Of a stretch of DNA of 64,000 nt, positions 2,336 to 28,608 are shown piece after piece. The notes below the pieces were generated by a model. The model did no database searches. It was not told where the DNA came from and was given only the letters and a program-made list of their open reading frames with translations. Every line of letters begins with the position of its first letter. Position 1 is the stretch's first letter. This stretch comes from a virus, in the IMG/VR virus record IMGVR_UViG_3300045988_125846, positions 91,523-155,522 of that record, one strand, 5' to 3'. The position numbers and the translations under genes were made by a program.

Positions 2336-2370
2336 GTCAATTCCCTCCTTAATTTTAAAAATGCACACTA

Positions 2371-2399: not shown

Positions 2400-2427
2400 C
2401 TCTAACTATGCATTTTATGGTTGCATA

Positions 2428-3640: not shown

Positions 3641-3677
3641 AGTTTGAACATTTAAGTCAATCGCTTGACTTGTTTAA

Positions 3678-3706
3678 AGTATATCATGTTACTTGTCTGT
3701 TGTCAA
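3678..3706 (-). promoter_or_regulatory. sigma-A/sigma-70 type promoter P1 (leftward)
   Basis: Minus strand reads TTGACA (3706-3701), 17-nt spacer, TATACT (3683-3678). Confidence 0.7.
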
Positions 3707-3779
3707 GTATTATTTTAGGATTGCTTGCAAAGAAGTTTAAAGTCTTGTTACTTCCTAATTATTCACTTGACTTAATACA

Positions 3780-3808
3780 AGTATATCAGATATTCTTTTG
3801 CTTGTCAA
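3780..3808 (-). promoter_or_regulatory. sigma-A/sigma-70 type promoter P2 (leftward)
   Basis: Minus strand reads TTGACA (3808-3803), 17 nt, TATACT (3785-3780). Confidence 0.7.
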
Positions 3809-3858
3809 GAGTCAATCTCTAATTTCTTAAAAATTGTTTGTTCTCTTGACTTGATTAT

Positions 3859-3887
3859 ATACTATCACATGAATTGTCTAAAGTCAA
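3859..3887 (-). promoter_or_regulatory. sigma-A/sigma-70 type promoter P3 (leftward, extended -10)
   Basis: Minus strand reads TTGACT (3887-3882), 17 nt ending in TGA, TAGTAT (3864-3859). Confidence 0.55.
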
Positions 3888-4083
3888 GTATTATTTTTCA
3901 AAAAATACGATAAATTATAATACAAACATATGTTCTACTTGGATAATCCAGATCTGATTTTATAGAACGTTTGTTCTATCCAAAAACAATGTATAATATA
4001 TATCTATTATCCACTGTTTTTGCCTAACCCGGGGTAGTTAAAACTAATTAGATGGGCTGGAAATGTAGTAAACCTTATAGCTG

Positions 4084-4302
4084 ATTCATCCACACACCAA
4101 CTCAAAAATCTAACCCTTCCCAATATTCAAAATCCCAACAAAATCAAGCAAAATCCAAAATTTCACCCTTCAAACCACTTATCGTACCCCATATCGTCAA
4201 ATTCCACTAAAATCAAGCATTTCAGCCACTTCAACCCCAAAAAATTAAATTCCTATCTCACCAAAAATTCACCCATAATTTCAAAATTATCCTTATTTAT
4301 AA
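4084..4302 (+). other. G-depleted C/A-rich tract
   Basis: I counted 5 G in 219 nt on the plus strand. AAAATCAAGCA occurs twice (4141-4151, 4210-4220). Confidence 0.8.
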
Positions 4303-4481
4303 GCACTTTTGCCGATAACGATTTTTCCATCAAAAGTCACACTCAAGAATCTCAACATATGGGGGTATTAAAACCTTCGCACAAATCACCTTTTAAATAG
4401 AGATATCCATATATAAAACAGCAATAAAAAGGACTATAGCCAAAGCCATAGTCCAATAAACAAATATTCAACAATATACAA

Positions 4482-5357
4482 CTAATATAAATAAATTTCA
4501 ATTCTCTCAATATCATATTTTTCTTTCATATCCAATAAATAACGATCAGATATTTTTATTTTTTCACATGCTGGTATTTTATTTGTTTTTATACTATAAG
4601 AAGTATTTATGCAAATTGGTTTATTATCGCTATTGTAATACAATATAGAGCATAATGCTAATTGATTACGATTTGAATTATTACTAAATATAATATCTCT
4701 ATATTCAAAGTTTCCATTAGTATATGGATTAGATACGCTATACTCTATATCTATAGGATCGGCTCTATAAACATTGCTTAAGTTTATTCTTGTATATTCA
4801 TCATATGATATTGGAATAATAATATACCTGTTAGAATTTACAACACCTCTAATTTCACCACTTCCAATATAAAATCCGTCTTTATCGTAACGTTTACATT
4901 TAATTCTAGCTTCAACAGTAATATCATTGTTATTTATTATCTTAATAGCATTAGTATTATTTCTATTAAAATCTTTGTTTTCAGGAATATCAATCAACTC
5001 ATAACTTACATGATCTTTTAAAGCATCCTTAACAGTAACCTTACAAACATAATTTTTATCATTATATTTTGCGGTTATTTTAACAGAACCAGGTTTTAAT
5101 GCTTCTATATGCCCATAATTAGTAACTTTCACAACATTTTTATTAGAAGAAGACCATCTGGCAGAATATATTTCAGTTTTCCCTTCATATATTTTCAAAT
5201 TTTTTACTTCTCCAGCATACAAAGTAATTTTTGTATAATTCAATTTAACCTTCTTGGCAGCATAGGTATTTTGTGGTGCTAATTGAATAATGGTAATAGT
5301 CATTACAACACATAACACAAAACTAAATACCCTCTTTAATCTCTTTGATTTCTTCAT
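4482..5357 (-). CDS. secreted protein with a bacterial Ig-like (Big_2) domain
   Basis: Signal-like N-terminus (FSFVLCVVMTITIIQLA...AYA). KLNYTKITLYAGEVKNLKI...VVKVTNYGHIEALKPGSVKITA matches the Big_2 pattern. Confidence 0.65.
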   Translation of the reverse strand: MKKSKRLKRVFSFVLCVVMTITIIQLAPQNTYAAKKVKLNYTKITLYAGEVKNLKIYEGKTEIYSARWSSSNKNVVKVTNYGHIEALKPGSVKITAKYNDKNYVCKVTVKDALKDHVSYELIDIPENKDFNRNNTNAIKIINNNDITVEARIKCKRYDKDGFYIGSGEIRGVVNSNRYIIIPISYDEYTRINLSNVYRADPIDIEYSVSNPYTNGNFEYRDIIFSNNSNRNQLALCSILYYNSDNKPICINTSYSIKTNKIPACEKIKISDRYLLDMKEKYDIERIEIYLY

Positions 5358-5854
5358 AAATAAAAACCTCCTATATAAAATATTTGATTTAATTGTACTC
5401 TTATATAAAAAGAATTACAATAAGTATGTTTCAATATAAATGTTTTCATAAAATAAAATCTCACTAATATAATTCCTCAAAAATATTATATATCATTCTA
5501 ACGTATTTAAAAGCCGAAATAAGGCTTTTTAATTTTTACCCCAACAAGTTATCATAAAAGCAATAAAAAACATTTCTAGGGCTATTCTACGCTGTCAAAA
5601 ATGCATCTACTTAAGTTACTCATTGTAGATTTTTACCAAAATTATTTTCAGTACAAAACATTATTTTATACATAATTGCCAAATTATACATCAGATAATG
5701 TGCGTAGCACAAGATGTAGTCCCTTGATAGGGACGGTCTTTTCGCAGCGTTAGCAAGAAAAGAACATCTCTAGGGTAGACATATATAAAATAAACCAATA
5801 AATAGCAATCCTAACAGAGAATAATATATTATCAATCAAGAAAGGAATTATATC

Positions 5855-6271
5855 ATGAACAATACAAACAATATAACCAATTCAGAGACACCAAAGTACC
5901 TCAAACATAAAGAAAGTAATATATCCAAAGCAAAGAAGAAATCTAAGCATAAACATCAATATGAAGAATGTTTAATTCAATACAGATGGAATTTTAAAAG
6001 TAATGTATTTACACAAGAAGAAAAAGATAAAATTTACACATCATTGAGCAGTTACTGTGCCGTATGCGGAAAAATCAAAGGATATTTGCAAAACGGAAAA
6101 TATCATACTGAGATTGAAGAATTACAAAAAGAAAGACAAAAATGGAAACCGTATTGGGTTGGAATACCAGACGAAGAAATATATGAAAGATATCATGATA
6201 AATTACCAGTATTCTTTGTAGAGGATTATTGGAAAGACAGCTATGTGAATTTGGATGAGAATAAAAAATAG
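5855..6271 (+). CDS. hypothetical protein (138 aa)
   Basis: RBS AAAGGAA upstream. Basic N-terminus with one CxxC. No family recognised. Confidence 0.5.
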   Translation: MNNTNNITNSETPKYLKHKESNISKAKKKSKHKHQYEECLIQYRWNFKSNVFTQEEKDKIYTSLSSYCAVCGKIKGYLQNGKYHTEIEELQKERQKWKPYWVGIPDEEIYERYHDKLPVFFVEDYWKDSYVNLDENKK

Positions 6272-6657: not shown

Positions 6658-7911
6658 TTGGAATTTAATTGTAAAGTTAATATTGTAGATGCCATTATGG
6701 GTGCTGGTAAAACTCAGTCAATAATGAATTATATTAATCAATCAGATGAAGATGAGAAATTTTTGGTAATAACACCTTTCCTTGATGAAATAACCAGATA
6801 TAGGACGTATTGTAATGGTAAGAATTTTAAAGCACCTACATTTTTAAAAGATGAAAAGGATGATAGGGGCAGTAAACTTAGAGATCTTAAGAGATTGATC
6901 GGCAATGGTAATAACATAGTGTCAACCCATGCTCTATTTCAAAAATTCGACAATGAACTGATTGATTTATGTAGAGCGCAAAATTATACGCTTATAATGG
7001 ATGAAGTTGCAAATGTTATAGAAGAATATGATATTACCAAACAGGATTTTGAGATATTAAAAAATACATATGTTGAAATCAATCCTGATACAAAGCAGCT
7101 TACATGGAAAGATGAATATTCTGATTATCATGGTAAATTTGATAATGAAAAGCGTTTATGTGAGTTAGGAAGTCTTGTATGTTATGGAGACAACTTAATG
7201 GTATGGTTATTTCCTATAGAGACATTTAATTCATTTAGGAATATCTATATTCTTACATATTATTTTGATATGCAAATGCAGAAATATTACTATGACTATT
7301 ATGGAGTTCAATATACATACTGGTCTGTTCAAGGCGATTCTATGGAAAATTATCATCTTATTCCATATAGCTCAAATATCAGATATACATCTTATGATTA
7401 TAGTAAGCTAATTCATATTTGTGAGAATGAAAAATTAAATATGATTGGCGATAGAGATTCTGACTTGTCTTTTTCTTGGTATTCTCGAAATAAAAACAAC
7501 GCATCAATGAAGATATTAAAAAAGAATATATATAATTTCTTCCATAATGTGCGAAATACAAATTCAAATGACTACATATGGACTACATTTAAAGAATACC
7601 AACAAATATTAAAAGGGAAAGGATATACAAAAGGATATCTATCATGTAATTGCAGAGCCACCAATGAATATCGAGACAGAACTTCTGTAGCATATCTTAT
7701 AAATCGTTACCTCAATCCATTTATTAAAAATTTTTTCACAACAAATCATATTAGTGTAGACGAGAATGGTTATGCACTTTCTGAAATGCTTCAGTTTATA
7801 TGGCGATCAGCTATTCGTGATGGCAAGGAAATTTGGGTATATATCCCAAGTATACGAATGCGAAATCTTCTAAAAAAATGGATCAAAGACAATTCACCAC
7901 AAAATTCCTAA
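6658..7911 (+). CDS. P-loop NTPase, SF2 helicase-like
   Basis: TTG start after AAAGGAG. Walker A AIMGAGKTQS and Walker B-like LIMDEV. Confidence 0.5.
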   Translation: MEFNCKVNIVDAIMGAGKTQSIMNYINQSDEDEKFLVITPFLDEITRYRTYCNGKNFKAPTFLKDEKDDRGSKLRDLKRLIGNGNNIVSTHALFQKFDNELIDLCRAQNYTLIMDEVANVIEEYDITKQDFEILKNTYVEINPDTKQLTWKDEYSDYHGKFDNEKRLCELGSLVCYGDNLMVWLFPIETFNSFRNIYILTYYFDMQMQKYYYDYYGVQYTYWSVQGDSMENYHLIPYSSNIRYTSYDYSKLIHICENEKLNMIGDRDSDLSFSWYSRNKNNASMKILKKNIYNFFHNVRNTNSNDYIWTTFKEYQQILKGKGYTKGYLSCNCRATNEYRDRTSVAYLINRYLNPFIKNFFTTNHISVDENGYALSEMLQFIWRSAIRDGKEIWVYIPSIRMRNLLKKWIKDNSPQNS

Positions 7912-8937: not shown

Positions 8938-9402
8938 ATGGCTGGTACAGTTGAAAAAGAAACCAATTTTTATCTATATAAGATTATAGATAAAGACGAA
9001 TTAGTGTATATTGGGAAGTCAACTAATATTGATAATAGAATTGAAGTTCATAGCGTTATAAATAATCATTTTGATAAAAACATGTATTTTACATGTAGAG
9101 GAGAAAGTATATCAAATTTAGTTATTTATATTGCCAACGTTCCTGACGAGTATCTTTTGTCAATATATGAAATAACATTAATTTCAAAATATAAACCACT
9201 ATATAATAACAGCGACAAGTATGATACAAAACATCTATTAAAGTTACCACAAATAAATTGGTTTCCATATGTATCAAAAGAAAATTGTGAAGTAATTTAT
9301 AACATGAAAACAGGCAAGATTATTGATCCTTGTTTAATAGATACACCATTAAAAAGATGGAATATTTTAAAAGATTTACATATGGAGGAAATTAAATGTT
9401 AG
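8938..9402 (+). CDS. GIY-YIG domain protein
   Basis: FYLYKIIDKDELVYIGKSTNIDNRIEVH carries GIY...YIG...R..E-type motifs. Confidence 0.6.
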   Translation: MAGTVEKETNFYLYKIIDKDELVYIGKSTNIDNRIEVHSVINNHFDKNMYFTCRGESISNLVIYIANVPDEYLLSIYEITLISKYKPLYNNSDKYDTKHLLKLPQINWFPYVSKENCEVIYNMKTGKIIDPCLIDTPLKRWNILKDLHMEEIKC

Positions 9403-12164
9403 ATACACAGATTAATATGTATTCGGTTGATACAGGTCATTTTTATAGCAATCATGAAAAATACTTACATCAAATGAACTGTAAATACAGACGTGAAAGA
9501 AATTATGTAAATAATATGCTTCCAAAATTAGAAGAAGAACTCGTAACGCAGGGTTACAACAAAGATGATTTTTCTGATTGGAAACGTTGTACCGTTGAAG
9601 ACTACTATGAACAAGAAAATGATTCTGTAAAAGAATATATGAAGTGGTGTTTGATTATAAAACACAAAAGAGAGAAAGCAAATTTATCAAAAGAAAAACT
9701 TCTGAATCTTTTATCAAATAAGACAATTCAAAAAGAGAATCTATCGAATAAAATCGAGTATTGCAAATCGCATAATATTCCATATAATAAAAAAATCGAA
9801 TTAAGAGAGTTAAGAAAAGATGAACTAAATGATAATAATATCATTTCAGTATTTGAATCTTCCCTTACACGTATTATTGGCATTAAAAAAGACGAACTAA
9901 CAGACGCTCTTATTGTAGTTCAAGTTTATTATTTTGATGTATTTAAAGATTTGTCTTTTTATGGGTTTATGTATAATGGCGAAAAATACAGATACTTTAC
10001 ATCTTCTGCTGGTCAAATCCGTAAGAAAAAAGCTGTTTTTATTAAAGAATCAGTATGGAATGAAGTTGAAAAGACAGTCATGTGTGGTCTTACTATTGAT
10101 AAAATAAACTCAAAGGGTGGAAACAATGTTAATAAACATCTTGCGTATATGGCATTGGCGAATTCAGCTACTGACCAGTGGAATGATTTTGATATAGACA
10201 GATGTATTGTTGTAGATGATTTTGAGACGAATGTGCCAGGAGAATTTGATTTTATTGATGAGACTGATTATTCGATTGAGAGAAAAACTGGTACTGTTCC
10301 GATTACTCATACTGATGGAGCTGGCATGATATTACCAAGCGTAATGACGAAAAACACAATGTTTCGTGCTCCATGGGTGAAAGGTTTATTGGGAGTATTT
10401 GATTTTAAAAAGTTTATTGAAGTAAATAATTGCTCTCCTATTATCACAGATATTTATGGGCAAGATCATGATGTAATTGCTGAAGATATTAGAATAATTT
10501 TCACAAAAAGTCAATTTAAGATGTATAAGTTTTATGATTCATGGGATGAGTATAAGACATATTTTAAGCAATATCATTGTCAAGCTGGTAGATGTAACAC
10601 TGAGGAAGATAGAATTAAAAATGCAAAAATCAATTATCAGATGTTGCAAACTCTCACAAATGTAACAGATGAAGAGATTGATTTACTTACAAAGAAGTCT
10701 GTGGAGCGAATCACAAATATCTGTAACTCTGTTGATACTATGAAAGATATTCTTGGAATTACACCTTATAATACAAATATGACAGCTTTTCAAAAAGCAG
10801 TAAAGATTTATCCTGCTCTACTCAACGATACATATGCAAAAGACGTGATCCGTGAAGTAAAGAATAGCCTTTTAAAAAAATATAGAAGTGGAAAACTTGA
10901 AATAAATGGAAAATATACTTTCTTACTTCCAGATTATTATGCAGCTTGTGAGTATTGGTTTGGACACATTGATACGCCTAAAGGATTGTTGGCAGACAAA
11001 GAGGTATTTTGTTGGTTATTTAAACAATATGATAAACTTGACTGTCTAAGAAGTCCTCACCTCTACAAAGAACATGCTATTCGTTTTAATGTAGCGAATA
11101 AAGTATATGAGGAACGAGTTGATAAAATCAGAGAATGGTTTACAACAAATGCGGTATATACAAGTACATATGACTTGATTAGTAAAATTCTTCAGTTTGA
11201 TGTTGATGGAGATAAATCATTGGTAGTTGCTGATCCTGATTTTGTAAGAATCGCAGAACGTAATATGAATGGTGTTGTACCACTCTATTATAATATGCGT
11301 AAAGCAGAGCCAAGAATTTTGAATAATCAAAGTATTTATGAAGGATTAAATGCGGCATTTACAGGTGGAAACATCGGTGTTTATAGCAACAATATTTCAA
11401 AAATCTGGAATAATGATGTATTTATCAATGGAACAGATGAGGAAAAAGAACATGCAACTAATTGTGTCAAGCGTTTATGCTGTCAGAATAATTTTGTTAT
11501 TGATTACGCTAAGACATTATACAAGCCTGAGTTTCCAGAAACAATTGGTGAAGAAATTAAAGAGTTTACCAATCAGAAACTTCCTGCATTCTTTGAATAC
11601 GCTAAAGACAAGGAAAAATCACAAGTTGATGATAGAAATGATAGTTTTGTAAATAAACTCTACTATCGTATTCCTAATAAATCAATTAATACAAGAGGTA
11701 TGAAACTTGGAGAATTAAAATATAAGGATATGATGAAAAATCCTGATATTGTATGTTCTAAAGAGGTATCTGATTTGTATGATGAATTGAACAAGAAGTA
11801 CCGCTATATGGTCAATATGAAGGATGAATATATTGATAATCTTCATTATGTGGCTTGCTCTATTAGAAATCAATTTGCAGAGCTTGGATATTCGGAAGAA
11901 ATGATTGCTGATATGCTCATTCAATATTTATATGGTGGGGAAAAACGTGCGAAACAATTGTTTTGGTTTTGTTATGGTCAGTATATTGTTACTAATTTAG
12001 AGAATAATCCAAATATCAAAAAGAAAAAGACTAAAATGATTCAATGTATTGATTGTGGTAAATGGATTGAAGTTGATTTTATGTCCAAGTCATGTAGATG
12101 TGAACTTTGTCAGCATGAATATCGAAAACAGCTTGATCGAGAAAGAAAAAGAAAAAACAAGTAA
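9396..12164 (+). CDS. single-subunit two-barrel RNA polymerase, YonO / cellular RdRP-like
   Basis: FDVDGDKSLVVADPD (DxDGD, nt 11199-11213) and an upstream YFTSSAGQIRKKK (nt 10002-10022) resembling the RdRP 'FSxSQLR' barrel motif. C-terminal Zn ribbon CIDCGK...CRCELC. 922 aa. Confidence 0.6.
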   Translation: MLDTQINMYSVDTGHFYSNHEKYLHQMNCKYRRERNYVNNMLPKLEEELVTQGYNKDDFSDWKRCTVEDYYEQENDSVKEYMKWCLIIKHKREKANLSKEKLLNLLSNKTIQKENLSNKIEYCKSHNIPYNKKIELRELRKDELNDNNIISVFESSLTRIIGIKKDELTDALIVVQVYYFDVFKDLSFYGFMYNGEKYRYFTSSAGQIRKKKAVFIKESVWNEVEKTVMCGLTIDKINSKGGNNVNKHLAYMALANSATDQWNDFDIDRCIVVDDFETNVPGEFDFIDETDYSIERKTGTVPITHTDGAGMILPSVMTKNTMFRAPWVKGLLGVFDFKKFIEVNNCSPIITDIYGQDHDVIAEDIRIIFTKSQFKMYKFYDSWDEYKTYFKQYHCQAGRCNTEEDRIKNAKINYQMLQTLTNVTDEEIDLLTKKSVERITNICNSVDTMKDILGITPYNTNMTAFQKAVKIYPALLNDTYAKDVIREVKNSLLKKYRSGKLEINGKYTFLLPDYYAACEYWFGHIDTPKGLLADKEVFCWLFKQYDKLDCLRSPHLYKEHAIRFNVANKVYEERVDKIREWFTTNAVYTSTYDLISKILQFDVDGDKSLVVADPDFVRIAERNMNGVVPLYYNMRKAEPRILNNQSIYEGLNAAFTGGNIGVYSNNISKIWNNDVFINGTDEEKEHATNCVKRLCCQNNFVIDYAKTLYKPEFPETIGEEIKEFTNQKLPAFFEYAKDKEKSQVDDRNDSFVNKLYYRIPNKSINTRGMKLGELKYKDMMKNPDIVCSKEVSDLYDELNKKYRYMVNMKDEYIDNLHYVACSIRNQFAELGYSEEMIADMLIQYLYGGEKRAKQLFWFCYGQYIVTNLENNPNIKKKKTKMIQCIDCGKWIEVDFMSKSCRCELCQHEYRKQLDRERKRKNK

Positions 12165-12204
12165 AATTCCGCATATCTTTAATGATATTTTGCACCCATT
12201 AGTA

Positions 12205-12243
12205 ATGGACTATTTTTAAATGTTATTTTTCTAAATAGTCCAT
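12205..12243. repeat. 11-bp perfect inverted repeat
   Basis: ATGGACTATTT (12205-15) / AAATAGTCCAT (12233-43) with a 17-nt loop. A third TTATGGACT lies at 12247-55. There is no U-tract. Confidence 0.8.
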
Positions 12244-12365
12244 TCATTATGGACTTTCATTTGTGTCTATATGGAGAACAACATATCATATAGGCATAAG
12301 CCTAATTTACAAATTAAGATATGTTTCTATAAACGAATTCGTGCAGTTGGGAGGAATGATTATTT

Positions 12366-12662
12366 TTGACAATTACACAGGAAAAGATTATTAAAGAAAT
12401 CGCAGAGAAGGAAGATATAAATGTAGCGACAGTCCGTAAAGTATTCAAAAGGGCAGAGAAATGTATATTCGCCTACCTATCTTCTACTACTCCCACTGAT
12501 AATACAGTGGTAAAAATTTTAGATGGATTAAGTTTGGAATGTAAATATATTCCAGAAAAAGAAATCCATACATATGATAATATCCAATGTGAGGCAAAAA
12601 TTTGGACGAAACCAAAAATAACTCGTTATTACAATAGAAAGCTAAATGGATATTTTGATTAA
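12366..12662 (+). CDS. HU/IHF-like DNA-binding protein (divergent)
   Basis: TTG start after GGGAGG. The N-terminus (KIIKEIAEKEDINVATVRKVFKRAEKCI...) parallels the HU helix-turn-helix arm layout. Confidence 0.4.
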   Translation: MTITQEKIIKEIAEKEDINVATVRKVFKRAEKCIFAYLSSTTPTDNTVVKILDGLSLECKYIPEKEIHTYDNIQCEAKIWTKPKITRYYNRKLNGYFD

Positions 12663-13068: not shown

Positions 13069-13141
13069 TCTCTTATAGCTCAGTTGGTAGAGCATCGCAC
13101 TGTTAATGCGAAAGTCGTAAGTTCGAGTCTTACTGGGAGAG
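13069..13141 (+). tRNA. tRNA-Asn (GUU)
   Basis: Hand-folded cloverleaf: acceptor TCTCTTA/TGGGAGA, D arm GCTC..GAGC, anticodon loop CTGTTAA, T arm GTAAG-TTCGAGT-CTTAC. Confidence 0.85.
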
Positions 13142-13976
13142 CTTTTCTACTTTTGTAGGACTGGTTGGTTTCGGATCAGGAGATGTTAAATCTCAAAAAT
13201 AAGCATGGCGACATGTATAAAGTGGTTCTTATCGTATTATAAGGCTGCGACTGTGAAATACAGTTTAACGGAAAACACATAAAATCTACGCCCAACCTTC
13301 TATTCAAGGACAACTGTTGGCGAATATGGTTGATTGGTGGGTGTCTTGAAATAGGCACTGTAGTAACACAGAAATGTGGGTATGATTTGTGTACTATTGG
13401 TGGGAATACCGCAAGTATAACCGCTGGTAGGATTTTGGTAATATCTCTTAAGTTGAAAAACAGGGATGGAATCAAAAGGCAAGGAGATCGCAATTCGAGC
13501 AGGATGGTGATGATTGGGCTGTACTCAAAAGGTACGGATGATCAAATGTACACCTCATCGTCCATAATAAGTACATGCTTTTGAAAGAAATCAAATTATT
13601 TTAGGTAAATAATATTTAAAAGAAAATTACAAAACAGCAAAAGTGTGTGCGACCGCAAAGAGAAAAACAACTTATTCACCTGTAATATGGTGACATATAG
13701 CACTCGCAAGGTGTTATATGAGAAAGTACAAGTACGTGCAATTCTAATAGGCTGCAACCTATGAATCTCGCAAGGAAGAATGTGCCGAAAGAAAATCTAT
13801 AATACTTTGTGGTAAGAGTTTGCCGGTTATGTCAAAACTGGTGTTGTTGCTAACTACAAGTTAATCGCTTGTGTGATAAACTGTGTCCAACCACAGTAGA
13901 TGTTAGTGTATTGAGTCAAATATCTCAGCTCATATTAAGTAATGATCTCATACTTCGGTATGGGATTTTTTATTTA
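13142..13976 (+). ncRNA. candidate large structured ncRNA (about 0.83 kb, GOLLD/ROOL-like context)
   Basis: No credible ORF and visibly GC-richer. Many hairpins (13292-320, 13521-35, 13666-83, 13881-96), GCAA and UUCG loops on the plus strand. Ends in the terminator at 13947-75 and is flanked by tRNAs. Confidence 0.4.
13947..13975 (+). terminator. intrinsic terminator (UUCG-capped)
   Basis: 7-bp stem CTCATAC/GTATGGG with a TTCG loop, then ATTTTTTATTT. Confidence 0.65.
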
Positions 13977-14051
13977 GAGTGTGTAGCTCAGTTTGGCAGA
14001 GCACTCGACTTTTAATCGAGTTGTCGATGGGTTCAAATCCCTCCACGCTCA
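13977..14051 (+). tRNA. tRNA-Lys (UUU)
   Basis: Acceptor GAGTGTG/CACGCTC, D arm GCTC..GAGC, anticodon arm CTCGA-CTTTTAA-TCGAG. The T stem is imperfect (ATGGG/CCCTC). Confidence 0.65.
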
Positions 14052-14305
14052 CTCTCTTCTGCTATTCGGCAGGAAATAAATCAAGAAAGAAGTGAAAATT
14101 ATTTTATTAATTAACAAAACAGAAGCCTTTGCAATGAGGAAACTTGTTGGAAATGAGAATGTAAAAAAGACTTATAGTGGTCATTCTAAATACTATCTGG
14201 TTGAGTCTTATCAGAATTTAAAGGCTTTAAGTAATTATAGAAAAAGTAAAATCGTTGGATAGAGACGAAATCTAAAATGAAAGGTGGTCGGAAACCATCG
14301 GTACA

Positions 14306-15535
14306 ATGAAATTTTATGATACTAATGCTATTTTAAAACTACAGGACAAAATTTTTGAGGAAGATTTTATCATAAGTTCTGTAACATTACAAGAATTAGA
14401 GCATATTAAAGTATCTCGAAACAAAGATGATCATGTAAAGTATGAAGCACGAAAAGTTTTGCACCTACTTGATGATAATTCGGATAAATATGAAGTTGTT
14501 GTATATGACAACGCAATTGAAAATTACATACTTGAGAAAAATATGGAAATAACACCTGATACTAAAATAGTTGGTAGTTGTGCATTTGTAAATACAATGA
14601 AGGATGTTATTTTTATTACAGATGATATTGCTTGTAAAATGATTGCAAGTAAGATATTTAATCTTACTGTAAAAGGTGTAAATGATGAGCCAGTAGATGA
14701 TTATAGTGGATTTATTGAGAAGACACTTTCAGAGTCAGAAATGGCTTATTTTTATGAACATTTGCAGGAAAATACCTATGGATTACTTGAAAATGAGTAT
14801 CTTATCTTAAAAGATTCTAATACTCATGCCGTTGATACTCTCGTTTGGCGAGAAGGAATGTACCAAAATATTAAATTCCCTAATATTAAATCAGATTATT
14901 TTGGCGTAGTTAAACCTCTTAATGGAGATATTTATCAGCAAATGGCTTTAAATAGTTTCTCTAATAATCAAATTACTATGATTAAAGGTTCTGCTGGTAC
15001 AGGAAAATCATATCTTGCGGTTGGATATATGATGTGGTTACTCGAAAAACACAAGATTGATAAAATTGTGATTTTTGCCAACCCAACTCCTACTATGAAT
15101 TCGGCTAAGATTGGATTTCTGCCAGGAACACAGCTAGATAAGCTCGTTGATTCAAGTATTGGTAATATGCTTGCTGGAAAACTTGGAGACAAGTTTATGA
15201 TTGAACAGCTTGTGTCAAGAAACAAGCTTTCTATATTACCGATGTGTGATATTCGAGGATTTGATACAAGTGGTTTAAATTGTGCGGTCTATATTACAGA
15301 GGCGCAGAATTTAGATATATCACTCATGAAACTTGCATTACAGAGAATTGGAGAAGATTCAATCTGTATTATAGATGGCGACTATAACACTCAGGTCGAT
15401 CTCAATCAATATGCAGGCAATAATAATGGTATGAGAAGAATGTCTGAGGTATTCAGAGGACATGATTTCTATGGAGAAATTGAATTACAGAACATCTACA
15501 GAAGTAAGATTGCTGCTGTAGCTGATGACATGTAA
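14306..15535 (+). CDS. phoH: PIN domain + PhoH-like ATPase
   Basis: YDTNAIL... PIN-like N-terminus; Walker A GSAGTGKSYLAVG; PhoH-like C-terminal half (ITEAQNL..., IIDGDYNTQVDL). Confidence 0.8.
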   Translation: MKFYDTNAILKLQDKIFEEDFIISSVTLQELEHIKVSRNKDDHVKYEARKVLHLLDDNSDKYEVVVYDNAIENYILEKNMEITPDTKIVGSCAFVNTMKDVIFITDDIACKMIASKIFNLTVKGVNDEPVDDYSGFIEKTLSESEMAYFYEHLQENTYGLLENEYLILKDSNTHAVDTLVWREGMYQNIKFPNIKSDYFGVVKPLNGDIYQQMALNSFSNNQITMIKGSAGTGKSYLAVGYMMWLLEKHKIDKIVIFANPTPTMNSAKIGFLPGTQLDKLVDSSIGNMLAGKLGDKFMIEQLVSRNKLSILPMCDIRGFDTSGLNCAVYITEAQNLDISLMKLALQRIGEDSICIIDGDYNTQVDLNQYAGNNNGMRRMSEVFRGHDFYGEIELQNIYRSKIAAVADDM

Positions 15536-15558
15536 AATATTATGAAATTGGAGGCTAA

Positions 15559-16197
15559 ATGCCTATGAATAAAGATTATTTACAGTTAGAGTTTGATAGT
15601 TTAGGAAATGAAGCAAATTATAAACTTGCAGATCCGACTCTTGTTGATTATTATAAGCGATTAAATAATCGTGAAATTCTCATCAATCAAGATATTGATG
15701 ACGGAATTGTAGAATGGACTCAGGAAATAGTTGAATGGAATAGAGAAGACAAGGATATAGCAATTGCCGAAAGAAAGTCAATTAAGATTTGGATTAATTC
15801 AAATGGTGGTTCTCTTAATGCAATAAACGAGCTTATTAATATCTGTAATCTTTCTAAGACACCAGTTTATGCTATTGGAATGGGAAAATGTTACTCCGCA
15901 GGAGGGCTTTTGCTTATGGGTATCCCAAGGGGCAACAGATATATCCTGTCGTCTACCGAAGCACTTATTCATGATGGTTCTACAGGTAGTTACGGAGATA
16001 CTGGCAAGGTACTTGATGATTTAGAGAGAACTAAGAAAATCGAGGAAGACACAAAACAGTTTATTTTAAGTCATACAAAGATTATTGAGAGTGAATATGA
16101 TAAAAATTATCGTAAAAATTGGTGGCTAGACGCTAACGAGATTATTGAAAAAGGTGTAGCTGACCACATTATTACAGATATTGAGGAATTATTTTAA
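15559..16197 (+). CDS. ClpP-family (S14) serine protease-like protein
   Basis: INSNGGSLNAINELINICNLSKTPVYAIGMGKCYSAGGLLLMG...ALIHDGS matches the ClpP core. Start may be the ATG at 15565. Confidence 0.75.
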   Translation: MPMNKDYLQLEFDSLGNEANYKLADPTLVDYYKRLNNREILINQDIDDGIVEWTQEIVEWNREDKDIAIAERKSIKIWINSNGGSLNAINELINICNLSKTPVYAIGMGKCYSAGGLLLMGIPRGNRYILSSTEALIHDGSTGSYGDTGKVLDDLERTKKIEEDTKQFILSHTKIIESEYDKNYRKNWWLDANEIIEKGVADHIITDIEELF

Positions 16198-16222
16198 GGA
16201 GGGCGCACTGCTCTCCTATTTT
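16198..16222 (+). terminator. hairpin + U-tract carrying the CTCTCCTATTT element
   Basis: GGAGGGC/GCTCTCC stem (16198-204/16210-16), then TATTTT. Confidence 0.55.
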
Positions 16223-16243
16223 ATTGGAGAAAAAGGAGAAAAT

Positions 16244-16453
16244 ATGGTAGATAGTAAAATTAAGAAAGCAACTGTTAGTGCGGCTAAAAAGAATATCACA
16301 GCAAGTGGAGTAAGAATTGAAAATGGAACCTTCGTTGACGATGAAGGTTCTATTGTAGATCGTATTGCTGAGAAGTTACCAAAAGGTACAACTATCTTTG
16401 ATATTAAAATCAGTATTGAGATTTCAGATGAAGAGTCTGAGTCTGCTGAATAG
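16244..16453 (+). CDS. hypothetical protein (69 aa), acidic C-terminus
   Basis: Start moved to the ATG after AAAGGAGAA. Confidence 0.5.
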   Translation: MVDSKIKKATVSAAKKNITASGVRIENGTFVDDEGSIVDRIAEKLPKGTTIFDIKISIEISDEESESAE

Positions 16454-16460
16454 AGAGTAG

Positions 16461-17456
16461 GTGGATGTTATAATCGACTTACATAGATTAGAAAATGAAA
16501 CAGGTTTTGAATGGAAATTAAGATGTTGTCTTGCAAAGAAACGTAAAGAGACAGATATGGATTGGATTGAAATTCGAGATATGCTTGGATTGAACATTAC
16601 ACCAGATCAGCTTAGAAAACAGGCAGTCGGATATGAAGAATATGATAATTATATTCACAACTGCGAGGGTGCATCTGAAAGAATTTTATGTGTGTCAGAT
16701 GTTCATATTCCGTTTAATTTACCTATTGATATTTTTACAAGCTATAAGGGAATTGTAGATACTTTAATAGTCAATGGTGATTTATTGGATTGTTTTTCAT
16801 GTTCTGCATTTCCTAAAAAATTCAAAGTAAATCTTGATGAAGAACTTGTTTTAGGAAGACAGTATATTATTGATTTAATCAATCTGACTACACCTAAAAA
16901 GGTAATGTTTGTGATGGGAAATCATGAATACCGTATGCAAAGATACTGTTCTGATAGATTATCAAACGAATTACTTGGCATCATCCCAACAGATCCGCTA
17001 GGAATGATTGTAGACGATGGATTCAAAGTTAATGATGAAAGAAATAAAACCCAGACACAATACTCTTCTATTCGTGAAGTGTTTGAAGATTCAAATATTG
17101 AAATCGTTTATGATAAAGAATGGTGGATAAAAGAAGGTAATGTAATTTTCTGTCACCCATTAAATTATTCATCTGGTATGTTAAAAACAACAGAAAAGGC
17201 AGTCAATTATTTCTTGCGTGTAGATCGCACATTTACTGGAATCGTAATGGCTCATACCCATAAAGTAGGAAGTTTTACTCAAGGTGGAATAAAAATGTAT
17301 GAGCAAGGTTGTGTGTGTGATTTGGATAAGCTGGATTATAACAACGGTAAACTTATAATTCCAAATCAGAACGGGTTTATGTATCTTGCATTGGATTCAA
17401 ATGGTGACATTATTGATTCCAAGACAAGAATTATTACTAATTTCATGACAAAGTAG
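16461..17456 (+). CDS. calcineurin-like metallophosphoesterase
   Basis: VSDVHIPF, GDLLD, GNHEY and AHTH motifs occur in the canonical order. GTG start. Confidence 0.75.
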   Translation: MDVIIDLHRLENETGFEWKLRCCLAKKRKETDMDWIEIRDMLGLNITPDQLRKQAVGYEEYDNYIHNCEGASERILCVSDVHIPFNLPIDIFTSYKGIVDTLIVNGDLLDCFSCSAFPKKFKVNLDEELVLGRQYIIDLINLTTPKKVMFVMGNHEYRMQRYCSDRLSNELLGIIPTDPLGMIVDDGFKVNDERNKTQTQYSSIREVFEDSNIEIVYDKEWWIKEGNVIFCHPLNYSSGMLKTTEKAVNYFLRVDRTFTGIVMAHTHKVGSFTQGGIKMYEQGCVCDLDKLDYNNGKLIIPNQNGFMYLALDSNGDIIDSKTRIITNFMTK

Positions 17457-17482
17457 ACCAAGTACAAGTGACTTGGTTTTTA
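17457..17482 (+). terminator. intrinsic terminator
   Basis: ACCAAGT/ACTTGGT stem followed by TTTTT. Confidence 0.7.
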
Positions 17483-17663
17483 TATTATGCATAAGTAACT
17501 ATGAAAATTGGGCTAATTTTCTACTTTTAATTAGTCCGATTGTATAGAAATTGTGATGTTGCTGTCACAATTGTATGTATCGGAGGGAGTGTACTCAAAT
17601 GAGACACTACCTTCTTTTTGTATTAAAAAAATAAATAATTGAGAAAAAAAGGAGAAAATTAAA

Positions 17664-17948
17664 ATGACAAAGAACGAGGTATTAAAGGCAGTAGTAAATA
17701 AAGTTGAGGGAGCTTCACAGAAGGATATCGCAGTTATTCTTGATGCTTTTGCTGATGTAATCACAGAGACATTAACAGCAAACCACGCAGAATCAGTTGC
17801 AGTTGGAAAACTTGGAAAGTTTAAGGTCAAGACAGTTCCAGAGCGTAGAGGAAAAATTATGATGGGCAATCGCAAAGGTGAGGAGTATGTAACTCCACAG
17901 CATGATGAGATTTGCTTTAAGATGTCAAAGTCTGCAAAACAGCTCTAA
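17664..17948 (+). CDS. HU family DNA-binding protein
   Basis: MTKNEVLKAVVNKVEGASQKDIAVILDAFADVITETL...GKFKVKTVPERRG... is a typical HU signature. Confidence 0.85.
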   Translation: MTKNEVLKAVVNKVEGASQKDIAVILDAFADVITETLTANHAESVAVGKLGKFKVKTVPERRGKIMMGNRKGEEYVTPQHDEICFKMSKSAKQL

Positions 17949-17969
17949 TTCTAAGGTGGTGAAAATATA

Positions 17970-18644: not shown

Positions 18645-18651
18645 ATATTTG

Positions 18652-18683
18652 GAGTGTGCGGTGTATGCTGCACACTCTTTTTT
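18652..18683 (+). terminator. intrinsic terminator
   Basis: GAGTGTGC/GCACACTC stem followed by TTTTTT. Confidence 0.75.
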
Positions 18684-18687
18684 GTAT

Positions 18688-24158: not shown

Positions 24159-25217
24159 ATGGCTAAATTAATACAGCCTTTATCAGAACAAGAATTAAAG
24201 CAGGCTACATTAGTCAGTCTGCGCAAAGATTATGGTAAGCTATCCAATTTCTATCAAAGAATCATAAATGGGGAACTTACACTTTGTCCTAAATGCGGTC
24301 AATGGAAATCCACAAAGATAAATTTTTATCAGTCAAATACGAGTCCTGATGGCGTAGAACATTATGGATGTCGTGAATGTATCCTTAATGATTGTACAGA
24401 TTATGACAAAGCCACAGATACAAGAATTGATAACAGAGAAAAAACGATTGAAACTTTTAAGCGTCTCAATTGGTATTTTGATGAAAATGTATATAATGAC
24501 CAATTGAAAATATTAGCAGATGGTGTAGGTGAAAAGGTTCGTGGTACTGCCGCACAACAGTGGATTACTATTAGGGCTAGTCTTAATGACTATAAGTTTA
24601 AGACTTTTGCTGATTCCGTATTCTCAGATGAAGATGAAGAAACTTTGCAACTTACTTCCAAAAGATCACCTAGAAAAGAAATTATTAAAATATTCGGCTC
24701 AGGTTTTACATCGGAGGATTACTTGTATTTGCAAGATCAGTATGATGATTGGCGTAGTCGCACACAAGTTGATAGTAAATCACAGGAAACCTACATCATA
24801 CAGATATGTTTTAAGCAGTTAGAAATTTGGAAGGCGCAGAAAGTAGGAAAAGATACTGACAAATTAGTAAAATCATTAAATGACCTTATGAATGGTGCAA
24901 ATTTACAGCCACGTCAGAATGTTGGAAACGCTGCTACTGACAGTCTTACTTTTGGACAGCTCATCGAAAAATGGGAGTTGGAGTCACCTATACCAGAAGC
25001 CCAAGGTGAATTTGCTGATCCAGATCATATTGGAAAATTTTTACGAGTATGGTTCAAGGGAAGCTTAATGCGAGCCTTGGGGTTGGATGGTGGTTATTCA
25101 AAAGAGTACGATGATTATGTCCAGAAATATACAGTTGAAAAACCTCAAAATATTGATGATGACGATTCTGTTGATGAAACCATGTATGAAAAAGTATTTG
25201 GAAAAAACGAGGTCTAA
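24159..25217 (+). CDS. putative terminase small subunit / DNA-recognition protein
   Basis: Lies immediately upstream of and abutting terL. Has Zn-ribbon CPKCG...CRECI. Assigned by position only. Confidence 0.4.
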   Translation: MAKLIQPLSEQELKQATLVSLRKDYGKLSNFYQRIINGELTLCPKCGQWKSTKINFYQSNTSPDGVEHYGCRECILNDCTDYDKATDTRIDNREKTIETFKRLNWYFDENVYNDQLKILADGVGEKVRGTAAQQWITIRASLNDYKFKTFADSVFSDEDEETLQLTSKRSPRKEIIKIFGSGFTSEDYLYLQDQYDDWRSRTQVDSKSQETYIIQICFKQLEIWKAQKVGKDTDKLVKSLNDLMNGANLQPRQNVGNAATDSLTFGQLIEKWELESPIPEAQGEFADPDHIGKFLRVWFKGSLMRALGLDGGYSKEYDDYVQKYTVEKPQNIDDDDSVDETMYEKVFGKNEV

Positions 25218-26990
25218 ATGCTTATGGGTAAAAAATTAACAGATAAACAGATTAAAGAAGATCGTACTAGTAAGATTATGAATACTGTTGCTCAAAGAGC
25301 ATCCTATTACCGAGCCAACCCGCATAGATTTTGCAGTGATTATTTGTTCCCAGATACTCCAAATTTTTTAAAGACATTCCAAAAGATTTTAATTTGGGCG
25401 ATGGTACATTCAGACTCATTTTGTTTTATTGCTTGTAGAGGTATTGGAAAAACTTTCTTAGTTGCCTTGTTTTCGGTAATAAAATGTATTTTATATCCAG
25501 GTACAAAGATAGTTGTAAGTTCTGCAACTTTCAAACAAAGTAAAGAATTGGTAGGTAAGATAACTGATGATTTTATGCATAGATCAGCTATGTTAAGGTC
25601 TGAAATAGAACGAACTAGTACAGGACAAAACGATTGTGGTGTATGGTTCAAAAATGGCTCATTTCTAGTTTGTAGAGTTGCAAATGAAAATGCCAGAGGC
25701 GCAAGGTGTAACGTACTTATAATTGATGAAAGTCGGCTTGTTCCAAAGAATATTATTGATGATATTTTTGTGCCTATGTTAAATGCCCCAAGGTCGCCTG
25801 GATATTTAAGTAAACCTGAATATTCTCATCTCGCAGAAGTTGGACAAAAATTGTTTTTAAGTTCGGCTTGGTATAAGCAAAGTGAATTATACTCTATGCT
25901 TAAAGGATATACAATAAACATGTTAAAAGATAATTCTAAATTCTTTGCATGCGACCTTCCTTATCAGTTATCTATCGCATCTAACATTATGATGCGTGAA
26001 ACTATCGAAAATGTTATGGCAGATCCAGATTTTAATGATATTTCATTTATGATGGAATACGAAGGAAAATTTTATGGTTCTGGTGAAGATAGTTTATTTA
26101 AGCTTGATGTTCTTGAAAATAGAAGAAATTTAAAAACAAGTTTTAGGAGTTTAGAATATTATCGAAACACGAATACTAAACCACCTATGAAACAGGCAGG
26201 TGAAAAAAGGATTTTATCTGTGGATATTGCTTTGTTAGCTTCACGAAAACATAACAACGATGCTTCTTGTTTTATAATCAATCAGCTTCTTCCAAATGGA
26301 GAAATGGATTATATAAGTAATATTGTTTATATAGATACTGCTGAAGGTCTTGTTACAGATGAACTTGGAATTATGATTATGAGATATTTTTATCAGTATG
26401 ATTGTGATTATTTGTCTTTAGATGCAAATGGTGTTGGGCAGTCGTGTTTGGATTTCTGTTTTGCAGATAGATATGATGCCATATATGGATGTACATACCC
26501 TGCTATTCAAACAGTTAATTCAGAAGATTTAAATGAACGATGTAAAATTAAGAATGCACCAAAAGTCATTTATGCTATTAAAGCAAATGCTAAATCAAAT
26601 AATGATATGGCACTCGCATTAAGAGCAGGTTTTCAAAATGGAAACATCAATCTTCTTATTAGCGAAAACAATATTGAAGATGAATTATCTAATGTTATTA
26701 AAGGGTATAATAAATTATCCATTCCGCAACAAGTCAGAGAAAAAATCCCATATTTGCAAACAACATTTTTAATAGAGGAACTTATCAATCTTGAACATGA
26801 TATTGTAAATGGCTTAGTAAAAGTCAAAGAAAAATCAGGTATGAGAAAAGATAGATATAGTTCTCTTGAATATAATTATTTTGTTGCACAAGAATTGGCG
26901 AGAAAACTAAAGCCTAAGAAAAACAATTTTGACATCACCAAAATGGTCGGTGTCTCAAAACGCCCTAAAAAATGGGGATTCTATAACTAA
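25218..26990 (+). CDS. terL: terminase large subunit
   Basis: Walker A-like ACRGIGKTF, Walker B LIIDES, C-terminal nuclease-like half. Size and position precede the portal. Confidence 0.8.
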   Translation: MLMGKKLTDKQIKEDRTSKIMNTVAQRASYYRANPHRFCSDYLFPDTPNFLKTFQKILIWAMVHSDSFCFIACRGIGKTFLVALFSVIKCILYPGTKIVVSSATFKQSKELVGKITDDFMHRSAMLRSEIERTSTGQNDCGVWFKNGSFLVCRVANENARGARCNVLIIDESRLVPKNIIDDIFVPMLNAPRSPGYLSKPEYSHLAEVGQKLFLSSAWYKQSELYSMLKGYTINMLKDNSKFFACDLPYQLSIASNIMMRETIENVMADPDFNDISFMMEYEGKFYGSGEDSLFKLDVLENRRNLKTSFRSLEYYRNTNTKPPMKQAGEKRILSVDIALLASRKHNNDASCFIINQLLPNGEMDYISNIVYIDTAEGLVTDELGIMIMRYFYQYDCDYLSLDANGVGQSCLDFCFADRYDAIYGCTYPAIQTVNSEDLNERCKIKNAPKVIYAIKANAKSNNDMALALRAGFQNGNINLLISENNIEDELSNVIKGYNKLSIPQQVREKIPYLQTTFLIEELINLEHDIVNGLVKVKEKSGMRKDRYSSLEYNYFVAQELARKLKPKKNNFDITKMVGVSKRPKKWGFYN

Positions 26991-27015
26991 GGAAAGGAGG
27001 AAATCAGAAATATAA

Positions 27016-28608
27016 ATGACAACACAGAAAACAAATAATTCTGCAAAGAAATCAGTACAGACAGAACCATCGCCAACTCGTAAAAATGAGCTGACTACTT
27101 CTACTCAGAAGTATGCACAGATGATTAACTTTCAGGAATTACAACGTATCTTACAGCAGAATATATCCAAAGGTACATCGAAGACATATACTCAATACAC
27201 AAAAGAAAAATTACAATCATACATAAAAAGTCCTCTTGCCAATATTGACAATCTTCGTGATATATCTGCTTTCTTATATCGTATCAGTCATAACTATAAA
27301 AAGATTATAGAATATTATGCTTACACTCCTATCTTTAGTTATAACGTATCTTACAATACTCCCGATTGGGCAAATCCCCCACAGGATGCATCTGAATATA
27401 TTAAAGGATATCAAGAACTCTGTACTCGATTAGAAAATATGGATTTGAAAGAAATGGGTTCGCAAATGATTGCCACTTGTCTAAGAGATGGTATTTATTG
27501 TGGATTTTGTTATGATGATGGAGATTCGTTCTTTATACATCCACTTGATCCAAAATATTATAAAATCGGTTCTCGTGCAGAAAAAGATACATGGATTGTA
27601 AAATTCGATGCCTCTTATTTTGATTCTGGTAACAACAAGGATTTCTTATATGGTACTGGTAGTGAAACAGATTCAGAGGAAGGATTATGGGATGATGTTT
27701 TTGTAGAAGGCTACGAAACATATAAATCAAAAGGTAATGATTATAAATGGTTTGAATTACCACCAGAAAAAACTATATGTATTATATGTGGTGATGATCC
27801 AGTTGTACCACTGCCCTACTTCCTACCTGTATTCGTATCTCTCTTAGATTTGCTTGATTACGAAGCTCTTATTCGTTCTAAAACAGAACTTGAAAATTAT
27901 GTTCTTCTCTTATCAAAAATCCCTATGAATGAAAATTCAGGCGAAGTAAATGACTTTGCTGTAGACCTTGAAATTGTACAAGCTACTCAAGCTGCAATTG
28001 ATGAAGTATTACCAAGTCTTGTTGGTTCAGCATGGACTCCATGTGAAGTTGAAAAAATTGAGTTTGGTAATAAAAATCAGGTTGATGATACCAATGTATA
28101 TTCACAGGCAATTAAGAACTTGTTCTCTTCTCTCGGTATATCTGAAATGATATTCAATGGTCAAAAATCAGGTTCTGTTGGTCTTAAACATTCTATCACA
28201 GTTGATATGACTCTTCCTATGGAGTTATTAAAAAGAATCGAAGCGAATATTCAAAGATATGTCAAATTAAATATCACAGAGGATTTTGAATTTTATTTCC
28301 ATTATGTATCTGTATTTGACCTTGATGAAAAGATGTCTCAAAGAAAAGATAAAGCTACGTTGGGTATAGATACAATGGATTATGCAACGTTGGATGGTTC
28401 TTCACCTTCAAGAGTTGTTAATAACGCTTTTATGATGAGGTCATTAGGATTAATGAATTACTTTACTCCTCTCTCATCTTCGTATACGCAAAGTGGCATG
28501 GGTGATAATGAAGGTGGTGGTCAGACTAAGAATGAAGATGACCTTTCAGATGAGGGACTTGCTACCAGAGAGGGTGAAAAAGATGTTGGCACACAAGCTG
28601 GTAATTAA
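27016..28608 (+). CDS. portal protein
   Basis: 530 aa directly after terL, with an acidic/Gly-rich C-terminus. Assigned by position and size. Confidence 0.6.
   Translation: MTTQKTNNSAKKSVQTEPSPTRKNELTTSTQKYAQMINFQELQRILQQNISKGTSKTYTQYTKEKLQSYIKSPLANIDNLRDISAFLYRISHNYKKIIEYYAYTPIFSYNVSYNTPDWANPPQDASEYIKGYQELCTRLENMDLKEMGSQMIATCLRDGIYCGFCYDDGDSFFIHPLDPKYYKIGSRAEKDTWIVKFDASYFDSGNNKDFLYGTGSETDSEEGLWDDVFVEGYETYKSKGNDYKWFELPPEKTICIICGDDPVVPLPYFLPVFVSLLDLLDYEALIRSKTELENYVLLLSKIPMNENSGEVNDFAVDLEIVQATQAAIDEVLPSLVGSAWTPCEVEKIEFGNKNQVDDTNVYSQAIKNLFSSLGISEMIFNGQKSGSVGLKHSITVDMTLPMELLKRIEANIQRYVKLNITEDFEFYFHYVSVFDLDEKMSQRKDKATLGIDTMDYATLDGSSPSRVVNNAFMMRSLGLMNYFTPLSSSYTQSGMGDNEGGGQTKNEDDLSDEGLATREGEKDVGTQAGN

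Follow-up and report, generated by a model that had tools for sequence, protein, structure and literature searches.

A YonO-family RNA polymerase gene and a conserved downstream element, a candidate promoter, in a probable SPbeta-like phage

Introduction

Within the IMG/VR record IMGVR_UViG_3300045988_125846, positions 91,523 to 155,522 form a stretch of 64,000 nucleotides of viral DNA, referred to below as the window, that encodes a protein of 922 amino acids. The gene is a clear relative of yonO of phage SPbeta, and the enzyme family to which it belongs is already known. Its family membership, its intact catalytic residues and its synteny with the genes of SPbeta-like phages could be established, as could its fold on the strength of a confident predicted model. 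The protein very probably unites both double-psi beta-barrels in one chain, acts as a DNA-dependent polymerase and transcribes the late gene cluster of the phage. From these relationships we infer its template preference and its late-gene role, and likewise a transcription start at or near 12196-12279, immediately 3' of the gene.

YonO is the only characterised DNA-transcribing single-chain relative of the universal multisubunit RNA polymerase, and as such it bears on how transcription arose and is attractive as a compact orthogonal polymerase. Knowledge of the family dates from 2003-2017, and YonO-like proteins of the Lachnospiraceae type were noted already in 2010. SPbeta YonO is an RNA polymerase, DNA-dependent and of high processivity, that is required for late-gene transcription, and without it 37 structural and lysis late genes stay silent (Forrest et al. 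2017, PMC5467207). These genes are transcribed as one operon from a start downstream of yonO-yonN and upstream of yonK, where the transcript is headed by an unannotated non-coding RNA; the promoter was unknown (Forrest et al. 2017, PMC5467207). A first-pass annotation of the window had described the promoters of the enzyme encoded here in the same terms, and this still holds, as the literature searched contains no later work identifying a YonO promoter.

The gene in the window is nothing new in kind; its family is plentiful among the SPbeta-like prophages of gut Lachnospiraceae. Comparison of the numerous divergent members of this clade brings to light a strand-specific motif unlike that of sigma-A, together with covarying repeats, at a fixed place after the gene. 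This conserved element makes the question of how YonO chooses its start site directly testable, and relatives are present in cultured strains including Lachnospiraceae bacterium A4 and 28-4 and Faecalicatena contorta NLAE-zl-C134.

The gene and its family

The open reading frame (ORF) is intact and starts with an ATG that overlaps the stop codon of an upstream GIY-YIG ORF (ATGTTAG). The gene and its principal features are as follows.

9396..12164 (+): yonO-family gene for a single-subunit two-barrel RNA polymerase (ORF list, Pfam, tblastn, AlphaFold, Foldseek)
9384..9388 (+): GGAGG ribosome-binding site, 7 nt 5' of the ATG (read from the sequence)
9450..9770 (+): N-terminal long-helix region, residues 19-125 (insertion in the alignment; model helices H19-51 and H76-125)
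9993..10031 (+): YFTSSAGQIRKKK, residues 200-212, conserved motif within the N-terminal portion of the RNA-dependent RNA polymerase (RdRP) domain
10308..10382 (+): putative first-barrel catalytic segment H305-T-D307-G-A-G ... R324 ... K329 (invariance and spacing)
11049..11057 (+): R552-S-P554, counterpart of the universal R-x-P (invariant in the alignment of 47 homologues)
11196..11213 (+): FDVDGD, residues 601-606, the predicted catalytic Mg-binding Asp triad (D602, D604, G605 and D606 invariant)
12045..12110 (+): C-terminal zinc ribbon C884-x2-C887-N14-C902-x2-C905 (all four Cys invariant)

The first-pass annotation had proposed a YonO-like relative of the cellular RdRPs, an identity borne out by the Pfam match, the similarity to SPbeta YonO, the fold and the catalytic residues. 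The Pfam RdRP family (PF05183) matches in two stretches at 46.2 bits against a curated cut-off of 23.8, and among the PHROGs the protein matches phrog_8308, a family of unknown function (E 4e-247). In tblastn searches of isolated phages SPbeta YonO is recovered with E=0 and 44% identity over residues 129-906, or 84% of the protein, and taken together with its Bacillus relatives it shows ~44% identity across 84-88% of the query length (E=0). The identity to CLG_B2308 of Clostridium phage D-1873 is 49.5%, and that to ORF215 of Psychrobacillus phage Perkons is 42.5% over the full length. Three-way alignment shows that the N-terminal motif MxxQIxxYSxDTxxFY, the DxDGD region and the four C-terminal cysteines are shared with SPbeta YonO; residues 1-45 and the C-terminus are also conserved, and the N-terminal helical region is ~45 residues longer than that of SPbeta YonO. 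The family as a whole is large, with >3800 homologues at 90% clustering and 1192 clusters at 50% identity, 372 of them below 1e-30. The name given by NCBI to the SPbeta-clade protein is 'DNA-directed RNA polymerase YonO'.

Searches of the sequences in the PDB, with the single sequence and with a profile of 47 sequences, returned no polymerase match, so that only Pfam and the fold search tie the protein to the RdRPs. NCBIfam yielded no model for the 922-residue protein, and megablast of window positions 1-25000 against phage genomes gave no match.

Fold and active centre

From 47 homologues of 43-96% identity AlphaFold2 produced a confident model, with a predicted local distance difference test score (pLDDT) of 88.7 and a predicted template-modelling score (pTM) of 0.82. 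Foldseek comparison with the PDB gave ten significant matches, all of them to the two-barrel RdRPs RDR2 or QDE-1 (E 1.9e-14 to 6.7e-9, template-modelling score ~0.4-0.5 over ~800 columns), and beyond these nothing below E=3. The search thus brought up no primase-polymerase or other fold, the outcome that would have told against the first-pass annotation. No structure of YonO turned up in the PDB fold search; predicted viral structures yielded, as top matches, phage proteins that carry the name RNA-dependent RNA polymerase (E 3e-27). Since there is no match at the sequence level in the PDB, the assignment of the overall fold with its two double-psi beta-barrels depends on the predicted model, which places the protein among the two-barrel enzymes.

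Eight residues are universal to two-barrel polymerases, in QDE-1 D709, R738, K743, R962, P964, D1007, D1009 and D1011, and the universal R-x-P formed by R962/P964 corresponds to R446/P448 of Rpb1 (Ruprich-Robert and Thuriaux, PMC2919709). Their counterparts in the window protein are D307, R324, K329, R552, P554, D602, D604 and D606, and all eight are invariant in the 47 sequences, including homologues at 43% identity. The spacing R324-x4-K329 equals that of R738 and K743 in QDE-1, and D307 precedes the pair as D709 does; pattern and spacing suggest that D307, R324 and K329 are the catalytic residues of the first barrel. From the R-x-P to the Asp triad there are 48 residues in the window protein and 43 in QDE-1.

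FDVDGD aligns column for column with FDNDGD of SPbeta (QFDNDGDK), and nt 11199-11213, where the first-pass annotation had placed the motif, encode exactly DVDGD. The corresponding SPbeta segment can be identified in the published mutagenesis, in which the primer for the YonO 3D>3N variant encodes ISKLLQF-N-N-N-G-N-KALIISD and the resulting mutant is inactive (Forrest et al. 2017, PMC5467207). In the window protein D602, D604 and D606 would hold the catalytic Mg, and D307, R324, K329 and R552/P554 would complete the universal active centre.

Two further motifs had been pointed out from the sequence. YFTSSAGQIRKKK does lie ~400 residues before FDVDGD (residues 200-212 and 601-606), it falls within the best stretch of the Pfam RdRP match (residues 178-318), and S203, S204, A205, Q207, I208, R209 and K211 are invariant in the 47 sequences. 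It had been likened to the first-barrel motif of cellular RdRPs, but it is situated outside the eight universal residues, and the first-barrel catalytic residues D307, R324 and K329 are found ~100 residues beyond it. The proposed C-terminal Zn ribbon is present as CxxC-N14-CxxC; its cysteines are invariant in the 47 homologues as well as conserved in SPbeta YonO, and the region is modelled as two beta hairpins with strands at 879-883 and 890-894.

A conserved element downstream of yonO

The 200 nt 3' of the yonO stop codon are conserved across relatives and contain an inverted repeat followed by a candidate promoter core; a small gene comes next.

12196..12252 (+): inverted 13-mers, CCATTAGTAATGG at 12196-12208 and CCATTCATTATGG at 12240-12252, with a complementary inner extension (conservation across an alignment of 31 loci)
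12260..12279 (+): TTTGTG-TC-TATATGG-AGAAC, candidate phage-specific promoter core (pattern and position weight matrix counts)
12366..12662 (+): orf98, a small conserved protein with a TTG start (416 homologues; always adjoins yonO in this clade)

The 13-mers read CCGTTATTTACGG and CCGTAAATAACGG in other loci, and 8-10 nt after the second one the alignment of 31 loci reads TTTGTGnnTATAWGGgAA. A scan of ~800 kb of related loci for TTTRTGnnTATAWRG finds 29 copies on the + strand, nearly all of them ~100 nt after yonO, and none on the - strand; a weight matrix at a threshold of at least 14 bits likewise gives 42 matches on + and 0 on -. Extra copies are found in three loci (L047, L033 and L050), some of them with similar upstream sites or after terminators. 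The element TTTGTGnnTATAWGG is absent from D-1873 and Perkons.

A sigma-A promoter has the -10 sequence TATAAT, in which A2 and T6 are invariant, together with a suitably spaced -35 or TGn element. The sequence at 12260-12279 departs from this scheme: in none of 26 instances does the hexamer, TATAWR, have a final T, and no -35 is present; the TGTG lies one base further upstream than an extended -10 would require.

The two 13-mers pair with each other in 78% of cells and the local palindromes in 87.5%, both values exceeding all shuffled and slid controls. As both pairings lie above the controls, the pair counts are equally compatible with an RNA or DNA hairpin or cruciform and with paired protein-binding sites. 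RNAalifold applied to the element returns only two small local palindromes.

The post-yonO element may be the promoter of YonO, and orf98 may bind its inverted repeats as a factor for architecture or specificity; we advance this interpretation tentatively and hold it to be rather less probable than not. Initiation would then take place at the GG that follows TATA in TTTGTGnnTATAWGG.

Several observations concern the motif and its surroundings. TGTGnn is complementary to an nnCACA 20-30 nt downstream, at 12280-12300 in the window and at the equivalent positions in relatives, with compensating changes (TGTGGC...GCCACA, TGTGCG...CGCACA), and in the window CTATATG pairs with CATATAG; to judge from these sequences a second hairpin enclosing TATAWGG is possible. 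In L050 (13857-14000) a second copy of TTTTGTGTCTATATGG comes immediately after an intrinsic terminator, and ~125 nt past it there is another terminator (AGAGATAAC...GTTATCTCT plus a T run), which makes this unit a candidate small RNA driven by the motif. In the tail-gene region of the window a weaker copy of the candidate promoter, TTATTTGGGTATATGGGGAA at 46756 (15.5-15.9 bits), precedes 46775-47715 in an ORF-free stretch (46494-47715, +) of 1.2 kb; the folding z-score is -4.05 for 46775-47715, and Rfam gave no match to the stretch, which may be another large non-coding RNA.

orf98, the small protein encoded next

Of the 416 homologues of orf98, the 120 listed are 72-98% identical to it. The protein belongs to no Pfam family, the HU-HIG (E 0.16) and Sigma70_r4_2 (E 0.014) models both scoring below cut-off. 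Its model has an HU-like topology (alpha-alpha-beta-beta-beta-alpha), and its best fold matches in the PDB are HU or histone-like proteins, at a probability of 0.9 but with non-significant E values of 0.25-0.9. orf98 was considered as the orthologue of SPbeta yonN and rejected: a BLAST comparison with YonN gave no match, and a canonical HU gene is located at 17664-17948.

The state of all four half-sites, CCAT or CCGT, covaries perfectly with two types of orf98 C-terminal half. This covariation could reflect recognition of the sites by the protein, or it could merely mirror two clades. orf98 is possibly a DNA-binding partner of the polymerase.

A GOLLD-like RNA and recurrent hairpins in the late region

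Two kinds of non-coding element accompany the genes that follow orf98.

13143-13976 (+): 834-nt GOLLD-like RNA, flanked by tRNA-Asn (13069-13142) and tRNA-Lys (13977-14052)
16198-16221, 41743-41771, 56414-56442 and 28804-28814 (+): CTCTCCTATTT hairpins or sites between late genes, roughly 13 kb apart

Rfam RF02032 matches at 13502-13931 over all 416 model positions with 100.1 bits and E 1.5e-26. The gathering score of 150 is not reached, yet given this E value and the full coverage of the model we call the RNA 'GOLLD-like'. Like GOLLD, the RNA at 13143-13976 is a large structured phage RNA of ~800 nt beside tRNA genes, and its folding z-score is -6.7. A full-length homologue follows yonO in a metagenome-assembled genome of Lachnospira (L010 9330-10132). 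The notion that GOLLD is a constant companion of yonO was discarded, as it was found only in the window and in this locus and is absent in SPbeta, D-1873, Perkons, L004, L007 and L009. A minority of loci have tRNAs downstream of yonO.

Exact matches to CTCTCCTATTT number four (16211, 28804, 41761 and 56432), each of them intergenic and on the + strand. In three of the four it forms the 3' arm of a hairpin consisting of TTAtGGAGrG, a loop of 7-12 nt and CTCTCC, followed by TATTT. A stop codon or terminator precedes the start of these hairpins by a few bases at most, and the next ribosome-binding site follows them after 15-45 nt. In relatives CTCTCCTAT is found, also on the + strand, at L004 16853, L007 14447 and 14630, and L008 22468. 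An alternative partner for CTCTCC is the GGAG of the Shine-Dalgarno sequence downstream. The hairpins may serve in RNA processing or stability, may cause pausing or termination, or may act as secondary promoters; the post-yonO element is the better promoter candidate.

Phage context and host

The neighbouring genes of the window place yonO upstream of a cluster with a single orientation.

6658-7911, upstream: YonV-like gene (82% identical to a YonV_C-bearing protein of a relative)
8938-9402 (+): ORF with a GIY-YIG nuclease domain (Pfam E 5e-7; its stop overlaps the yonO start)
17664..17948 (+): canonical HU-like gene, counterpart of SPbeta yonN (ORF; tblastn with the HU of relative L004, 43% identity, E 1e-15)
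24159-25217 (+): YonG-like gene (SPbeta YonG, 39% identity, E 4e-32)
24159..28608 (+): start of the morphogenesis genes, namely YonG-like, large terminase and portal (YonG match; terminase and portal PHROGs matches)

From yonO to the end of the window almost all genes are on the + strand. The gene is followed in order by orf98, tRNA-Asn, the 834-nt RNA and tRNA-Lys, then by PhoH, a ClpP-like protease and a metallophosphoesterase; more tRNAs come after HU, and terminase, portal, tape measure and tail genes after the YonG-like gene. The loci of the Bacillus clade share the order GIY-YIG, yonO, HU, PhoH, YonK/J, ClpP, and contigs whose polymerase is 80-84% identical carry the Pfam families YonK, YonJ, YonD and YonG. 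Close relatives (54-80% identity) are present in the genomes of 44 species, mostly Lachnospiraceae, among them members of Lachnospira, Roseburia, Blautia, Acetatifactor, Faecalicatena and other genera. Since the gene neighbourhood and the relatives both point this way, the element is most likely an SPbeta-like temperate tailed phage or prophage of a Lachnospiraceae bacterium.

A number of side observations complete this picture. A SegE-type GIY-YIG gene occupies the same place as the GIY-YIG neighbour in a Metabacillus prophage (L056), and an inserted ORF divides yonO into two parts in several SPbeta-like Bacillus phages, which together suggest that yonO is a homing-endonuclease hot spot. Scattered among the genes after yonO, at 13069-22452, are eight tRNA genes (Asn, Lys, Tyr, Asp, His, Glu, Pro and Trp). 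A tyrosine-recombinase-like gene (18937-19971) is embedded in the + strand cluster, a Ku homologue is encoded on the - strand (21485-22153, Pfam E 6e-36), and a gene with a GmrSD_N domain is situated among the tail genes (47716-48753). Positions 1-6000 of the window have a GC content of 0.36 with negative GC skew, as against 0.28-0.34 with positive skew elsewhere; their ORFs run along the - strand, and one of them has a Big_2 Ig-like domain. This segment may be a separate module, or it may mark the element's edge.

Function and alternative explanations

By orthology with SPbeta YonO the enzyme would be expected to be DNA-dependent and processive, and a role in late-gene transcription is most likely, a view supported by the synteny with the late cluster. 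The polymerase would be made from early or middle messages transcribed by the host enzyme and would then, with no need of the host polymerase, transcribe the + strand cluster, which begins at ~12.3 kb and extends past 64 kb. The transcribed cluster would comprise the tRNAs, the GOLLD-like RNA and the genes for PhoH, ClpP, HU, terminase, portal and tail proteins. In agreement with the first-pass annotation, no other RNA polymerase was seen among the larger ORFs of the 64-kb window, nor was a sigma factor seen in it.

Several points weigh against this assignment. The choice of a DNA over an RNA template is predicted from 44% identity to a characterised enzyme, and Pfam and several database records call the family 'RNA-dependent RNA polymerase'. 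The position of DVDGD on a barrel loop is likewise deduced from the alignment and the global fold match. The window lacks yonK and yonJ, which follow the mapped start site in SPbeta. Its 64 kb cover only a portion of the phage genome, and another polymerase or a sigma factor could be encoded elsewhere.

The database name raises the question of whether the protein is mainly an RNA-dependent RNA polymerase that copies or extends phage or host RNAs, for example the large non-coding RNA in its neighbourhood, rather than transcribing DNA. Its sole significant structural matches are indeed RNA-dependent enzymes, and the GOLLD-like RNA lies 1 kb downstream. We nevertheless consider this improbable, for SPbeta YonO, the only characterised close relative, is DNA-dependent (Forrest 2017), the synteny with the late cluster is conserved, and most relatives are without GOLLD. 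A more radical alternative, that the protein has a different fold or activity such as that of a primase-polymerase or nuclease, or is an inactive relic in which the DxDGD match is fortuitous, could appeal to the lack of any PDB sequence or profile match and the consequent reliance on a predicted model. It is exceedingly unlikely in view of the Pfam score above cut-off, a confident model whose significant fold matches are all two-barrel RdRPs, the invariance of the eight universal residues in 47 sequences, and an intact ORF with a good ribosome-binding site.

It is also conceivable that the structural genes are read by the host polymerase. The YonO start in SPbeta heads a long unannotated non-coding stretch, in the window tRNA-Asn, the GOLLD-like RNA and tRNA-Lys come after yonO-orf98, and the second motif copy in L050 appears to drive a ~125-nt unit ending in a terminator, all of which would suit such a division of labour. 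The silence of 37 structural and lysis genes in SPbeta without YonO speaks against it, as does the lack of a tRNA or GOLLD at the corresponding place in most relatives, and we judge it unlikely. Transcription of the late cluster by the YonO-family polymerase is the explanation that we favour.

Comparison with known systems

The closest characterised system is that of SPbeta. The two polymerases are homologous over their full length and share the N-terminal motif, the DxDGD triad, the R-x-P and the zinc ribbon, and both genes lie upstream of a one-directional late cluster with YonV, HU, YonG and terminase. In contrast to SPbeta YonO, the window protein is 83 residues longer, ~45 of these in the N-terminal helices and 10 near residue 680, and its host most likely belongs to the Lachnospiraceae and not to Bacillus. 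Furthermore, yonO is followed by orf98 in the window, whereas in SPbeta it is directly followed by HU, and the conserved DNA element downstream differs in sequence from the SPbeta start-site region.

The published start site (genome position 2225998) is bounded by the primer-extension primers to 9114-9307 of the SPbeta locus (L001). Inverted 15-mers, (C/A)TAATnnTCATTTAT, at 9053(+)/9084(-) and 9210(+)/9269(-) lie at or around the interval that contains the mapped start, and they are partly conserved in a B. altitudinis phage. This layout is comparable to that of the post-yonO element although the sequence differs; comparing the 9-mers of the SPbeta start-site region with those of the equivalent intergenic regions in the window, D-1873, Perkons and relatives brought out nothing meaningful. 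The yonN-yonK gap of SPbeta (L001 8830-10510), 1.68 kb devoid of ORFs, is unusually long, and parts of it are retained in unchanged order in a B. altitudinis prophage (L054 9041-10156). Its sole Rfam match is the DUF3800-VIII motif (L001 10189-10254), and the gap is presumably the 'unannotated non-coding RNA' of Forrest 2017.

CLG_B2308 of D-1873 and ORF215 of Perkons are the closest proteins in isolated phages. Both genes are followed by HU, in D-1873 also by PhoH and a tRNA, and they are annotated only as hypothetical protein or 'RNA-dependent RNA polymerase'.

With QDE-1 and RDR2 (PF05183) the window protein has in common the two-barrel fold in one chain, the eight active-site residues and a motif resembling FSxSQLR; these enzymes, however, are only 11-13% identical to it and copy RNA in silencing pathways. 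Multisubunit RNA polymerases, with their beta and beta' barrels, and other phage two-barrel polymerases such as crAss-like gp66 also build their catalytic centre, with its DxDGD loop, R-x-P and basic pair, from two double-psi beta-barrels. No multisubunit polymerase is among the PDB fold matches, and the window protein, of ~105 kDa, is predicted to hold both barrels in one chain without the clamp, the flap and the other domains.

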